Position numbers and translations under genes: made by a program. The notes beneath the pieces were generated by a model that ran no database searches, was not told where the DNA came from, and saw only the letters and a program-made list of their open reading frames with translations. A DNA stretch of 11,081 nucleotides. Source: Escherichia coli. Lineage in GTDB: Bacteria; Pseudomonadota; Gammaproteobacteria; Enterobacterales; Enterobacteriaceae. The stretch lies in assembly GCF_003334315.1 (NCBI RefSeq), contig NZ_QOWR01000086.1; one strand, given 5' to 3'. Position 1 is the stretch's first letter. Every line of letters starts with the position of its first letter. Shown one piece after another: positions 1,176-10,890 of the stretch.

Positions 1176-1268
1176 TGTAAATTTATCTATACAGAGGTAA
1201 GGGTTGAAAGCGCGACTAAATTGCCTGTGTAAATAAAAATGTACGAAATATGGATTGAAAACTTTACT
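1176..1268. promoter_or_regulatory. Cluster of three TyrR-box-like operators in the yfiL/aroF divergent region
   Basis: Matches to the TyrR box consensus TGTAAA-N6-TTTACA: TGTAAATTTATCTATACA (1176..1193), TGTAAATAAAAATGTACG (1228..1245), TGGATTGAAAACTTTACT (1251..1268). aroF is the classic tyrosine-repressed TyrR target. Boxes were matched by eye. Confidence 0.6.
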
Positions 1269-3549: not shown

Positions 3550-3586
3550 GTGCCGGATGATTCACATCATCCGGCACCTTTTCATC
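3550..3586. terminator. Palindromic terminator between convergent tyrA and pheA
   Basis: Perfect inverted repeat GTGCCGGATGA (3550..3560) / TCATCCGGCAC (3567..3577) with loop TTCACA, followed by CTTTTCATC on the + strand. It lies 8 nt after the tyrA stop and immediately 3' of the pheA stop (3585..3587). Confidence 0.7.
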
Positions 3587-4745
3587 AGGTTGGATCAACA
3601 GGCACTACGTTCCCACTTGGGTAACAGCCCAATACCTTCATTGAACGGGTGATTTCCCCTAACTCTTTCAATGCTTTTTGCATTTCCGCTGATTCAAGAT
3701 TGGCCTGAATATCCAGATAGAACATCTCTTCCCATGGATTACCGTGAATCGGGCGTGATTCCAGACGGGTCATAATCAGATTGTGGTTGCGCAGTACCAG
3801 CAACGCTTCAACCAGCGCACCGGCTTGTTGCCCGGTCGCCATTAACAACGTGGTTTTCGCCGGAACCTGATCAGACACGTTAATGGCTTTACGCGCCAAC
3901 ACCACAAATCGGGTGAAGTTTTGTCGCTGATTTGCTTCAATACGCTCCAGTACCTGCAAACCGTACAAAGTGCCGCCAGCTTCGCTTCCCAACGCAGCAA
4001 CATGCGGTGATTTTGCCTGTGCAACCTTTTCCATTGCCGCAGACGTACTTTCGGTATATTCAATCTTCCAGTGCGGATAACGATTAAGGAATTTGCTGCA
4101 TTGCTGGAATGGCTGCGGATGGCTGTAGACCGTATTGATGGTGGATAAATCAGTAGTGCCGGAGACCAACAAACAATGGTCGATAGTTAACGTCATCTCG
4201 CCAACAATCGACAAGCTGGTATGTTGCAGCAGATCGTAAACGTCGTTTATGGCACCGGAGCTGGTATTTTCAATCGGTACGACGGCATAGTCGGCCTGGC
4301 CGGTTTCCACCTGATTAAAAATATCGGCAAATTTGGCGCAGCCACTTTCAATGAATTGCTCAAAGTGACGGGCAGCATACTGGCGCGCCGCAAGATGGGA
4401 ATAAGAACCTTTGGGGCCGAGAAAAGCGATGCGTGCTGAGTGCGGATTAATTTTATTGAGATGTTGTTGGAGCAAAGCCTGCTGAGTTAATACGGAATCT
4501 TCAATGATGAGCTGGAACAGGCGAGTAATGTAATGGGCGTCCAGATGGTGCGCTTTACCGAGCGTAATTAATCTTTCCAGCAAATCGCGTTCACGATCAA
4601 TATCACGTACCGGGCGATGCGAGAGCAGTTTGGCTTTTCCCACCTCGACGGCCAGTTCGCGCCGTTCTGCCAGTAACGCTAATAATTTTTCATCCAGCGC
4701 GCTGATTTTCTCTCGCAGCGCCAGTAACGGGTTTTCCGATGTCAT
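3585..4745 (-). CDS. pheA: Bifunctional chorismate mutase / prephenate dehydratase (P-protein)
   Basis: 386-aa ORF beginning [22 protein letters not shown], matching PheA in length and domain order (chorismate mutase, prephenate dehydratase, C-terminal regulatory domain). Confidence 0.95.
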
Positions 4746-4765
4746 AGTGTTGCCTTTTTGTTATC

Positions 4766-4797
4766 AATAAAAAAGGCCCCCCGATTTGGGAGGCCTT
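4766..4797 (-). terminator. pheA attenuator (intrinsic terminator of the pheL leader transcript)
   Basis: Minus strand reads GGCCTCCCAAATCGGGGGGCC followed by TTTTTTATT, a GC-rich hairpin plus U-run. It sits between the pheL stop (4844) and the pheA start (4745). Confidence 0.85.
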
Positions 4798-4843
4798 ATT
4801 GTTCGTCTTCGCATTCTGTTTCACACGACGAAACGCCTCCCAT

Positions 4844-4891
4844 TCAGGGGAAGGTAAAAAAGAATGCGAAGAAAAACGGTATGTGTTTCAT
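4844..4891 (-). CDS. pheL: pheA leader peptide (Phe-rich attenuation peptide)
   Basis: Minus strand ATGAAACACATACCGTTTTTCTTCGCATTCTTTTTTACCTTCCCCTGA translates [15 protein letters not shown]: 15 aa with 7 Phe codons. Too short for the ORF track; found by reading the sequence. Confidence 0.9.
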
Positions 4892-4916
4892 GTTTGTTTC
4901 CTTAAGTGACTTTAGT

Positions 4917-4946
4917 ACAGTACCCGTACTGTTTTCACGCTGTCAA
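4917..4946 (-). promoter_or_regulatory. Candidate pheL-pheA promoter (-35 TTGACA, -10 TACTGT)
   Basis: On the minus strand, TTGACA (4946..4941), an 18-nt spacer, then TACTGT (4922..4917), about 25 nt upstream of the pheL ATG. The -35 directly abuts the raiA terminator U-run. Confidence 0.55.
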
Positions 4947-4947
4947 C

Positions 4948-4970
4948 AAAAAACGCGCCCGAAGGCGCGT
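4948..4970 (-). terminator. raiA intrinsic terminator
   Basis: Minus strand ACGCGCC-TTCG-GGCGCGT hairpin (stems at 4964..4970 and 4953..4959) followed by TTTTTT, about 25 nt after the raiA stop. Confidence 0.8.
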
Positions 4971-4994
4971 TGGCGATACACTCAATATAAAGGA

Positions 4995-6478: not shown

Positions 6479-7459
6479 ATGGCACAACGAGTACAGCTCA
6501 CTGCAACGGTGTCCGAAAACCAACTCGGTCAACGCTTAGATCAGGCTTTGGCCGAAATGTTCCCGGATTATTCACGTTCGCGAATAAAAGAATGGATCCT
6601 CGACCAGCGAGTGCTGGTTAACGGCAAAGTTTGTGATAAGCCGAAAGAAAAAGTATTGGGTGGCGAGCAGGTTGCCATCAACGCTGAGATTGAAGAAGAA
6701 GCGCGTTTTGAACCGCAGGATATCCCGCTGGATATCGTCTATGAAGATGAAGACATTATTATCATTAATAAACCGCGCGACCTGGTGGTACATCCTGGCG
6801 CGGGTAACCCGGATGGCACGGTACTGAATGCGTTGCTTCATTACTATCCACCCATTGCCGATGTACCGCGTGCGGGCATCGTCCATCGTCTGGATAAAGA
6901 CACCACTGGCCTGATGGTTGTGGCAAAAACCGTTCCGGCTCAGACGCGTTTAGTCGAATCTTTGCAACGGCGTGAAATTACTCGTGAGTATGAAGCGGTG
7001 GCGATTGGTCATATGACCGCAGGTGGCACGGTGGACGAGCCAATCAGTCGCCACCCGACCAAACGTACCCATATGGCGGTGCATCCGATGGGCAAACCAG
7101 CGGTGACTCACTATCGCATCATGGAACACTTCCGTGTGCACACGCGTCTGCGGTTGCGTCTGGAAACTGGACGTACGCACCAGATCCGCGTGCATATGGC
7201 CCATATCACTCATCCGCTGGTGGGCGATCCGGTTTATGGTGGCCGTCCGCGTCCGCCAAAAGGTGCTTCGGAAGCATTTATCTCCACGCTGCGTAAGTTT
7301 GACCGCCAGGCGCTACATGCAACCATGCTGCGTCTTTATCACCCGATCTCCGGCATCGAAATGGAATGGCATGCGCCTATTCCACAAGATATGGTGGAGC
7401 TGATTGAGGTGATGCGCGCCGATTTCGAAGAACATAAGGATGAAGTGGACTGGTTATGA
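6479..7459 (+). CDS. rluD: 23S rRNA pseudouridine(1911/1915/1917) synthase RluD
   Basis: 326-aa ORF with an N-terminal S4-like RNA-binding region and the RluA-family catalytic motif HRLDKDTTG. Matches RluD in length. Confidence 0.95.
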   Translation: MAQRVQLTATVSENQLGQRLDQALAEMFPDYSRSRIKEWILDQRVLVNGKVCDKPKEKVLGGEQVAINAEIEEEARFEPQDIPLDIVYEDEDIIIINKPRDLVVHPGAGNPDGTVLNALLHYYPPIADVPRAGIVHRLDKDTTGLMVVAKTVPAQTRLVESLQRREITREYEAVAIGHMTAGGTVDEPISRHPTKRTHMAVHPMGKPAVTHYRIMEHFRVHTRLRLRLETGRTHQIRVHMAHITHPLVGDPVYGGRPRPPKGASEAFISTLRKFDRQALHATMLRLYHPISGIEMEWHAPIPQDMVELIEVMRADFEEHKDEVDWL

Positions 7460-8187: not shown

Positions 8188-8249
8188 CCTAAAGAATCAA
8201 GACGATCCGGTACGCGTGATTTTCTTTTCACATTAATCTGGTCAATAAC

Positions 8250-8278
8250 CTTGAATAATTGAGGGATGACCTCATTTA
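8250..8278 (+). promoter_or_regulatory. Candidate sigma-32 (heat-shock) promoter of clpB
   Basis: CTTGAA at 8250..8255 and CCTCATTTA at 8270..8278, separated by 14 nt. This fits the sigma-32 consensus (CTTGAA ... CCCCATNT). clpB is a known heat-shock regulon member. Confidence 0.6.
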
Positions 8279-8316
8279 ATCTCCAGTAGCAACTTTGATC
8301 CGTTATGGGAGGAGTT

Positions 8317-10890
8317 ATGCGTCTGGATCGTCTTACTAATAAATTCCAGCTTGCTCTTGCCGATGCCCAATCACTTGCACTTGGGCACGACAACCAATTT
8401 ATCGAACCACTTCATTTAATGAGCGCCCTGCTGAATCAGGAAGGGGGTTCGGTTAGTCCTTTATTAACATCCGCTGGCATAAATGCTGGCCAGTTGCGCA
8501 CAGATATCAATCAGGCATTAAATCGTTTACCGCAGGTTGAAGGTACTGGTGGTGATGTCCAGCCATCACAGGATCTGGTGCGCGTTCTTAATCTTTGCGA
8601 CAAGCTGGCGCAAAAACGTGGTGATAACTTTATCTCGTCAGAACTGTTCGTTCTGGCGGCACTTGAGTCTCGCGGCACGCTGGCCGACATCCTGAAAGCA
8701 GCAGGGGCGACCACCGCCAACATTACTCAAGCGATTGAACAAATGCGTGGAGGTGAAAGCGTGAACGATCAAGGTGCTGAAGACCAACGTCAGGCTTTGA
8801 AAAAATATACCATCGACCTTACCGAACGAGCCGAACAGGGCAAACTCGATCCGGTGATTGGTCGTGATGAAGAAATTCGCCGTACCATTCAGGTGCTGCA
8901 ACGTCGTACTAAAAATAACCCGGTACTGATTGGTGAACCCGGCGTCGGTAAAACTGCCATCGTTGAAGGTCTGGCGCAGCGTATTATCAACGGCGAAGTG
9001 CCGGAAGGGTTGAAAGGCCGCCGGGTACTGGCGCTGGATATGGGCGCGCTGGTGGCTGGGGCGAAATATCGCGGTGAGTTTGAAGAACGTTTAAAAGGCG
9101 TGCTTAACGATCTTGCCAAACAGGAAGGCAACGTCATCCTATTTATCGACGAATTACATACCATGGTCGGCGCGGGTAAAGCCGATGGCGCAATGGACGC
9201 CGGAAACATGCTGAAACCGGCGCTGGCGCGTGGTGAATTGCACTGCGTAGGTGCCACGACGCTTGACGAATATCGCCAGTACATTGAAAAAGATGCTGCG
9301 CTGGAACGTCGTTTCCAGAAAGTGTTTGTTGCCGAGCCTTCTGTTGAAGATACCATTGCGATTCTGCGTGGCCTGAAAGAACGTTACGAATTGCACCACC
9401 ATGTGCAAATTACTGACCCGGCAATTGTTGCAGCGGCGACGTTGTCTCATCGCTACATTGCTGACCGTCAGCTGCCGGATAAAGCCATCGACCTGATCGA
9501 TGAAGCAGCATCCAGCATTCGTATGCAGATTGACTCAAAACCAGAAGAACTCGACCGACTCGATCGTCGTATCATCCAGCTCAAACTGGAACAACAGGCG
9601 TTAATGAAAGAGTCTGATGAAGCCAGTAAAAAACGTCTGGATATGCTCAACGAAGAACTGAGCGACAAAGAACGTCAGTACTCCGAGTTAGAAGAAGAGT
9701 GGAAAGCAGAGAAGGCATCGCTTTCTGGTACGCAGACCATTAAAGCGGAACTGGAACAGGCGAAAATCGCTATTGAACAGGCTCGCCGTGTGGGGGACCT
9801 GGCGCGGATGTCTGAACTGCAATACGGCAAAATCCCGGAACTGGAAAAGCAACTGGAAGCCGCAACGCAGCTCGAAGGCAAAACTATGCGTCTGTTGCGT
9901 AATAAAGTGACCGACGCCGAAATTGCTGAAGTGCTGGCGCGTTGGACGGGGATTCCGGTTTCTCGCATGATGGAAAGCGAGCGCGAAAAACTGCTGCGTA
10001 TGGAGCAAGAACTGCACCATCGCGTAATTGGTCAGAACGAAGCGGTTGATGCGGTATCTAACGCTATTCGTCGTAGCCGTGCGGGGCTGGCGGATCCAAA
10101 TCGCCCGATTGGTTCATTCCTGTTCCTCGGCCCAACTGGTGTGGGGAAAACAGAGCTTTGTAAGGCGCTGGCGAACTTTATGTTTGATAGCGACGAGGCG
10201 ATGGTCCGTATCGATATGTCCGAGTTTATGGAGAAACACTCGGTGTCTCGTTTGGTTGGTGCGCCTCCGGGATATGTCGGTTATGAAGAAGGTGGCTACC
10301 TGACCGAAGCGGTGCGTCGTCGTCCGTATTCCGTCATCCTGCTGGATGAAGTGGAAAAAGCGCATCCGGATGTCTTCAACATTCTGTTGCAGGTACTGGA
10401 TGATGGGCGTCTGACTGACGGGCAAGGGAGAACGGTCGACTTCCGTAATACGGTCGTCATTATGACCTCTAACCTCGGTTCCGATCTGATTCAGGAACGC
10501 TTCGGTGAACTGGATTATGCGCACATGAAAGAGCTGGTGCTCGGTGTGGTAAGCCATAACTTCCGTCCGGAATTCATTAACCGTATCGATGAAGTGGTGG
10601 TCTTCCATCCGCTGGGTGAACAGCACATTGCCTCGATTGCGCAGATTCAGTTGAAACGTCTGTACAAACGTCTGGAAGAACGTGGTTATGAAATCCACAT
10701 TTCTGACGAGGCGCTGAAACTGCTGAGCGAGAACGGTTACGATCCGGTCTATGGTGCACGTCCTCTGAAACGTGCAATTCAGCAGCAGATCGAAAACCCG
10801 CTGGCACAGCAAATACTGTCTGGTGAATTGGTTCCGGGTAAAGTGATTCGCCTGGAAGTTAATGAAGACCGGATTGTCGCCGTCCAGTAA
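8317..10890 (+). CDS. clpB: ClpB disaggregase (Hsp100/Clp AAA+ chaperone)
   Basis: Track ORF 8305..10890; the start is taken at the ATG at 8317 ([18 protein letters not shown]...), giving 857 aa. GGGAGGAG Shine-Dalgarno at 8307..8314. Two Walker A motifs (GEPGVGKT and GPTGVGKT) and a coiled-coil middle domain. Confidence 0.95.
8749..8763 (+). promoter_or_regulatory. Internal translation initiation site for the short ClpB isoform (ClpB-80)
   Basis: In-frame GTG at 8761 (codon 149), preceded by GGAGGTG (8749..8755) with a 5-nt spacer. E. coli clpB is known to yield a truncated isoform from an internal GTG at codon 149. Confidence 0.65.

Follow-up and report, generated by a model that had tools for sequence, protein, structure and literature searches.

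The stretch of Escherichia coli DNA analyzed here (11,081 nucleotides; referred to in the following as the window) almost certainly carries a ribosome-mediated transcription attenuator, the native pheL-pheA element of E. coli. This regulatory element is already known, and its mechanism has been fully described in published work. As judged from the list of open reading frames (ORFs) and the RefSeq annotation (K-12-derivative locus), the window contains aroF-tyrA, pheA, raiA, bamD, rluD, yfiH, and clpB; all features of the attenuator are positioned on the minus strand. A comparison with the Rfam Phe_leader family (RF01859) yielded a match at positions 4892..4767 (minus strand) that scored 132.3 bits (gathering threshold 55; E = 2.4e-24) and extended over the complete model (positions 1-125 of 125). 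We found the 301-base leader region in all 5426 of 5426 complete E. coli genomes, many of them, including a K-12 derivative, at 100% identity, and the RefSeq labels in the matching genomes read 'pheL: phe operon leader peptide', 'Phe leader region', pheA, and raiA. A first-pass annotation of the window had described a complete pheL-pheA attenuator and had regarded it as textbook biology, an assessment with which Rfam, RefSeq, folding, conservation, and the literature agree. Its view that the window possesses intact native regulation is borne out as well, in that the sequence elements are all present where they had been placed.

The leader ORF, its Shine-Dalgarno sequence, and the regulated gene were located at the following positions.

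4903..4899, minus strand: Shine-Dalgarno sequence AAGGA of pheL, 7 nt 5' of the ATG (read directly)
4891..4844, minus strand: pheL leader ORF, 15 codons plus UGA (translation; RefSeq CDS WP_010723158.1)
4876..4868, minus strand: pheL Phe codons 6-8 (translation)
4864..4856, minus strand: pheL Phe codons 10-12 (translation)
4852..4850, minus strand: pheL Phe codon 14 (translation)
3585..4745, minus strand: pheA (chorismate mutase / prephenate dehydratase), the regulated gene, with its ATG at 4745 (ORF list, RefSeq)

Translation of 4891..4844 (minus strand) confirmed that seven of the 15 pheL codons specify phenylalanine, just as had been proposed at first pass. When we collected the 189 ATG ORFs of 6-41 codons present in the six frames of the window, pheL proved to be the sole short ORF with at least five Phe. 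The GGA of its Shine-Dalgarno sequence is kept across the aligned upstream regions. Ribosome profiling has demonstrated that pheL is translated and that the ribosome density on its UGA is heavy (Baggett et al. 2017, PMC5373646).

Folding of the free leader RNA gave a structure of -52.9 kcal/mol (z-score -5.6), to which none of 200 shuffles was equal in stability, and in which both a protector and a terminator were present. The helices of the leader and the associated T-run are listed below.

4877..4801, minus strand: protector (1:2), in which the Phe-codon segment 4877..4854 pairs with 4824..4801 (-31.2 kcal/mol folded alone)
4853..4836, minus strand: small hairpin CUUCCC-CUGAAU-GGGAGG spanning the final pheL codons together with the stop codon (-7.4 to -7.8 kcal/mol)
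4842..4787, minus strand: antiterminator (2:3), in which UGGGAGGC (4842..4835) pairs with GCCUCCCA (4794..4787) (-22.5 kcal/mol folded alone)
4797..4773, minus strand: attenuator (3:4) terminator hairpin AAGGCCTCCC-AAATC-GGGGGGCCTT, in RNA AAGGCCUCCC-AAAUC-GGGGGGCCUU (terminator scan; -18.5 kcal/mol)
4774..4769, minus strand: attenuator T-run, six T (terminator scan)

The protector appears in the minimum-free-energy structure of the free leader, and the same helix is found in the Rfam consensus. The core of the antiterminator consists of GGGAGGC (4841..4835) paired with GCCUCCC (4794..4788), with UCGUC paired to GACGA inside; it captures GCCUCCCA, which is the 5' arm of the terminator, and hence excludes the terminator. 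The attenuator stem comprises 10 bp, seven of which are G-C pairs, and its T-run ends 23 nt 5' of the pheA ATG; the GC-rich terminator with a U-run that had been noted just upstream of pheA is thereby confirmed at 4797..4769 (minus strand). The stability of the antiterminator exceeds that expected by chance: the 46 nt from the stop codon to the terminator arm fold with -20.9 kcal/mol, compared to a shuffle mean of -10.8 (SD 2.4), none of 1000 dinucleotide shuffles was equally stable, and one of the 1000 paired at least nine bases of the arm. The first-pass annotation had suggested that the RNA be folded in search of mutually exclusive antiterminator and terminator hairpins and that the result be compared with the published pheA leader. 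Both hairpins form (-22.5 kcal/mol for the antiterminator versus -18.5 kcal/mol for the terminator), and the identical 1:2 / 2:3 / 3:4 scheme is given by Gurvich et al. 2011 (PMC3082878), who describe seven Phe codons, a 1:2 pause structure, a 2:3 antiterminator, and a 3:4 attenuator.

Related leaders were collected by pattern searches. A loose pattern (TTYTTYNNNTTYTTYTTYNNNTTYCC) applied to genome contigs returned mostly chance pyrimidine tracts among the matches listed; among these same listed matches, at least three loci, from Citrobacter werkmanii, Enterobacter sp. Bisph1, and E. albertii, fit a tighter leader pattern. A Haemophilus haemolyticus locus (L080) that had been picked up by the loose pattern did not match the tighter one and was dropped. 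When metagenome contigs were searched with a tighter pattern, 63 loci were recovered, which yielded 40 further distinct leaders, with about ten chance matches filtered out. The alignment (A1) obtained after filtering and removal of duplicates holds 44 distinct leaders. A RaiA homologue is encoded directly upstream in 47 of 52 related loci, and a PheA homologue directly downstream, less than 300 nt from the leader, in 49 of the 52. Since the PheA proteins of these loci are 74-99% identical, the loci have diverged from each other; we take them to be enterobacterial. For comparison, Gurvich et al. 2011 (PMC3082878) studied 53 pheL genes, which fall into two groups.

The alternative helices are preserved in these 44 leaders. 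The cells of the protector are paired to 95.1% (47-59% in slid controls), those of the terminator to 97.5% (36-80% in slid controls), and those of the antiterminator to 85.4% (37-50% in slid controls). Compensatory changes were detected in the protector at one pair, which involves the third base of an Ala codon (U-A in 33 leaders, A-U in four), and in the terminator at two pairs comprising nine cells, a level that none of 500 shuffles reached. We sought covariation in the antiterminator across the 44 leaders as well and found none; its core (GGGAGGC:GCCUCCC and UCGUC:GACGA) is essentially invariant. Because the core pairs never vary, covariation is silent on the antiterminator and speaks neither for nor against it. 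A likely reason for this invariance is that each arm is also bound by a second partner.

Variation on both sides of segment 3 was observed in Escherichia albertii (L098, 6296..6435), where the antiterminator arm reads GGAGGC instead of the GGGAGGC of E. coli and the terminator 3' arm reads GGAGGCC instead of GGGGGGCC. Each of the two partners of segment 3 thus has one G fewer; the two differences may be correlated or may have arisen by chance. The equilibrium folds of the E. coli leader contained an extra helix between the end of pheL (UCCCCUGA) and the 3' arm of the terminator. In the relatives, 84% of this helix is paired, yet 39 of the 44 leaders lack one central pair and what remains reflects a C-run against a G-run; we claim no feature here.

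To represent the translating ribosome, we used an unpaired block that extends to 10 nt past the A-site codon; this footprint is assumed and crude, and the outcome of the modelling depends on it. For nascent RNA lacking segment 4, an A site at any position from Phe6 to Phe12 is predicted to yield the antiterminator, an A site at Phe14 a weakened form of it, and one at the stop codon none. In the full leader, stalls at Phe6 to Phe11 kept the antiterminator, and stalls at Phe12 onward, or the absence of a ribosome, led to the terminator. An equilibrium calculation in which the 5'-UTR was left free to pair agreed with this, although less clearly: the probability of the terminator stem was 0.00-0.46 for stalls at codons 8-11 and at least 0.92 for stalls at codons 12-16, and stalls at codons 5-7 (including Phe6 and Phe7) resulted in a terminator probability of about 0.6, i.e., a partial switch. 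With this model, the geometry of the leader is such that a stall on the Phe codons would free segment 2 and a ribosome positioned at the stop codon would block it.

Published transcript data place one 3' end within the leader. This sole leader Term-seq end (MG1655 position 2737663; Adams et al. 2021) corresponds to C4827 of the window, 82 nt 5' of the pheA ATG, and apparently derives from the minimal-medium sheet. C4827 is located 9 nt 3' of the small hairpin at 4853..4836, which ends at -10, and its context corresponds to the pause consensus (G at -10, pyrimidine at -1, G at +1). The small hairpin is 99.2% paired in the 44 leaders and is likely to be an RNA polymerase pause hairpin that sets a pause at C4827. 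RNA polymerase has been reported to pause in pheL with a half-life of 16.7 s, prolonged 1.9-fold in the presence of NusA, in a text that gives no coordinates (PMC9291695); we infer that this pause coincides with the Term-seq end at C4827.

The curated Term-seq list of Adams et al. 2021, which covers three conditions, lacks any entry at the U-run of the attenuator. In the same tables, the ends for leuL, ilvL, thrL, and pheM are found inside or just past the leader ORF, and trpL and hisL are absent. Since other classical attenuators also come without U-run ends, the lack of such an end for pheL seems to be caused by the list itself. A drop in DirectRNA-seq reads from 899 to 109 across the leader was rejected as evidence for attenuation because the upstream 800-nt window contains raiA. 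Basal pheA expression has been put at about 10% of the starved level (PMC3082878, citing Gavini and Pulakat 1991, and Hudson and Davidson 1984).

One could read these data to mean that termination in the leader is mainly Rho-dependent, or that the observed ends arise from processing, and that it is not the 3:4 hairpin that brings transcription to its end. In the data of Adams et al., the pheL leader (2737662) is classed as a region of Rho termination with a score of 1.99 (p = 2e-7), and the only leader Term-seq end is the one at -82, with none at the U-run. We nevertheless consider such a scenario very improbable. The Rho score was derived from 800-nt windows, the upstream one of which is dominated by the highly expressed raiA mRNA, and a two-fold effect is weak. 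Furthermore, the 3:4 element is canonical in form, with 10 bp (seven G-C pairs) in its hairpin and six U, it is conserved, compensatory changes included, and the -82 end fits the pause consensus. In classical in vitro work, pure RNA polymerase is reported to terminate efficiently at 4772..4769 without Rho.

The heavy ribosome density on the pheL UGA, together with the readthrough and frameshift products that were reported for pheL (Baggett et al. 2017, PMC5373646), could also suggest that pheL acts mainly through its peptide, by a TnaC-like arrest, or through recoding at UUC_CCC_UGA, with a +1 frameshift leading over the attenuator, and not through the sensing of Phe codons. Our analysis of the reading frames (window 4846..4690, minus strand) shows what such products would comprise. 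Readthrough of the UGA in the 0 frame would add 15 codons, MGGVSSCETECEDEQ, up to a UAA. The +1 frame is open for 51 codons after CCC_U and, by our own count, ends 53 nt inside pheA, compared to the 80 nt given by Gurvich et al. (PMC3082878); the 66-residue length of this +1 product is consistent with the FLAG-tagged product of 9 kDa observed by Baggett et al. (PMC5373646). This open +1 frame into pheA is a further point in favor of recoding. However, frameshifting at UUC_CCC_UGA amounts to 15% and was judged incidental (Gurvich et al. 2011, PMC3082878), tests with tRNA-Pro mutants in the same publication revealed no influence of the frameshifting on pheA expression, and the extension peptide is unconserved (PMC3082878). 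The extended products are missing in strains with a B-type RF2 (PMC5373646). The conservation at the nucleotide level is explained by the pairing of CUUCCC (4853..4848) with GGGAGG (4841..4836), in which 99% of the cells are paired. We accordingly give very little credence to a regulatory role of the peptide or of its recoding, and favor sensing through the Phe codons. The notion that pheL is a chance short ORF beside an ordinary terminator, with its regulation uncoupled, can be dismissed: nothing speaks for it except that short ORFs are generally abundant (the window has 189), and it is already refuted by the Phe content (one such ORF only with at least five Phe), by the Rfam match (E = 2.4e-24), by the retention of ORF, helices, and synteny across loci whose PheA proteins are just 74-99% identical, and by an antiterminator that beats all 1000 shuffles.

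Upstream of pheL, the end of the raiA transcription unit and the presumed promoter of pheL-pheA are closely packed.

4971..4952, minus strand: intrinsic terminator hairpin of raiA, AACGCGCC-TTCG-GGCGCGTT (terminator scan)
4953..4948, minus strand: T6 run of the raiA terminator (terminator scan)
4946..4941, minus strand: TTGACA (6/6), read directly, the putative -35 region of the pheL-pheA promoter
4922..4917, minus strand: TACTGT (3/6), candidate -10 region with an 18-nt spacer (conservation)

A scan for consensus promoters called no sigma-70 site in the pheL upstream region, and a text search of the literature on the pheL promoter found nothing. The -35 sequence TTGACA named in the first-pass annotation is present at 4946..4941 (minus strand) and perfect, and given this hexamer, TACTGT is the only plausible -10. 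TTGACA is invariant among the homologous pheL upstream regions, and TAnTnT (T, A, and the final T) recurs at the 18-nt spacing in 40 of the 41 upstream regions that fit the T-run/TTGACA pattern. This sequence conservation supports the proposed -10 and -35 assignment, from which transcription would be expected to start at about 4911..4910 (minus strand).

It had been stated that the -35 hexamer abuts the U-run of the raiA terminator without any spacer; G4947 intervenes, so that the spacer is 1 nt. The description of the arrangement as very compact is correct, but the layout is a conserved enterobacterial one and not specific to the window. In a comparison of the junction that covered the related loci L059, L086, L098, and L122-L184, 41 of 43 distinct homologous upstream regions contained a T-run followed by one purine and TTGACA, and 38 of the 43 contained the complete GCGCC-loop-GGCGCG hairpin plus T-run 5' of TTGACA. 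The compactness of the junction represents an ancestral enterobacterial arrangement. The 3' end of the raiA mRNA mapped by Term-seq (MG1655 2737542; Adams et al. 2021) corresponds to window position 4948, the last T of the run, and is supported by about 62,500-72,000 average reads in two LB conditions. The raiA mRNA therefore ends with the T that lies two bases 5' of the -35 hexamer.

We found no study in the literature on a functional role of the overlap between the raiA terminator and the pheL -35 region. It is conceivable, albeit unlikely, that terminator and promoter constitute one conserved and functionally coupled composite element (hairpin, six T, purine, TTGACA). If they were coupled, the T-run and hairpin could set or insulate the strength of the pheL promoter, a polymerase residing on this promoter could aid raiA termination, and leftover readthrough from raiA could feed the pheL attenuator; the exact 1-nt junction would then be under selection rather than reflecting tolerated compaction.

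The elements described above suggest the following course of events. Transcription would be initiated, at a predicted start site, from a promoter whose -35 region is perfect and whose -10 region is weak, located directly past the raiA terminator, and RNA polymerase would read the 15-codon leader, probably pausing at C4827 behind the small hairpin over the end of pheL. The outcome would be decided by the ribosome translating pheL. With an ample supply of charged tRNA-Phe, the ribosome would reach the UGA and cover GGGAGGC, thereby blocking the antiterminator, and the 3:4 hairpin and its U-run would then stop transcription ahead of pheA. If charged tRNA-Phe were scarce, the ribosome would stall on the early Phe codons and occupy segment 1, allowing segment 2 to pair with segment 3; this 2:3 pairing would remove the 5' arm of the terminator, and the polymerase would continue into pheA. 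Without translation, the 1:2 protector would form and, with it, the terminator. The response to Phe in vivo, the start site, and the nature of the pause are taken from the literature or deduced, and the sequence elements, the helices with their energies and conservation, and the influence of the modelled ribosome position on them were determined here.

The pheL element is one of the classical amino-acid attenuators, has entries in both Rfam and RefSeq, and has been studied in detail by experiment; it is of little discovery value. It does serve as a positive control, in that a functional ORF of 15 codons, a putative promoter, and a terminator were recovered from the raw sequence without tools, and the alternative-structure logic of the leader is reproducible by computation. 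Mildly new are the junction between the raiA terminator and the -35 region, which is fixed at one purine throughout the enterobacteria, and the finding that the published leader Term-seq 3' end matches a consensus pause site and not the attenuator U-run.

Several observations were made elsewhere in the window. A perfect 12-bp hairpin, GTGCCGGATGAT-TCAC-ATCATCCGGCAC, at 3550..3577 fills the 42-nt gap between the convergent genes tyrA (end 3542) and pheA (end 3585) and is probably a bidirectional terminator shared by both. Upstream of aroF, two sites resembling TyrR boxes (TGTAAA-N6-TTTACA) were found at 1176..1193 and 1228..1245 (plus strand) with one and two mismatches, respectively, at a chance expectation of 0.36; they are consistent with TyrR control of aroF-tyrA, in contrast to pheA with its control by attenuation only. 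The Rfam family RF02768 (Ysr155/RyfD sRNA) matched 8198..8336 (plus strand) with 125 bits, overlapping the clpB ORF where it begins (8305); a very abundant 3' end classed as ryfD primary / clpB internal appears in the Term-seq tables. The rluD gene (6479..7459, plus strand) is an intact ORF of 326 codons in the window; in the K-12 derivative ER1709 (L001, 3043..4022) it is annotated as a frameshifted pseudogene of 980 nt, and the pheL region of this strain is identical to that of the window. The window thus does not stem from precisely this strain.

Among known systems, the pheL/pheA leader of E. coli K-12 (RF01859; a member of the CCC_UGA group of Gurvich et al. 2011) is the same element, and we detected no difference between the two. 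They share the peptide, its UUC_CCC_UGA ending, and the 1:2, 2:3, and 3:4 helices, and both lie between raiA and pheA. The trpL leader of the trp operon follows the same attenuation logic, although its sequence is unrelated: it combines a short leader ORF containing regulatory codons with a pause structure and mutually exclusive antiterminator and terminator helices, and uses the position of the ribosome as the sensor. It possesses two Trp codons among 14, in comparison with seven Phe codons among 15 in pheL, and the trp operon is also governed by a repressor, unlike what is known of pheA control. To our knowledge, there is no repressor of pheA; the former 'pheR' is, going by the title of reference 69 in PMC3082878, a tRNA-Phe gene.

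The pheM leader of pheST is likewise a Phe-codon-rich attenuation leader of E. coli; EcoCyc lists it as a leader peptide, and its pause has been mapped. It differs from pheL in locus and sequence, and it regulates the phenylalanyl-tRNA synthetase instead of biosynthesis; furthermore, its pause is unresponsive to NusA, whereas that of pheL responds (PMC9291695). A comparison of pheL with tnaC, the leader of the tryptophanase operon, was drawn by Gurvich et al. under the section heading 'pheL and tnaC' (PMC3082878). Both encode a short peptide that ends in Pro-stop and are subject to slow termination at the stop codon. The tnaC leader responds to free Trp via its nascent peptide and acts on Rho-dependent termination. 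In pheL, by contrast, charged tRNA is sensed by codon-dependent stalling of the ribosome, and the terminator under control is intrinsic.
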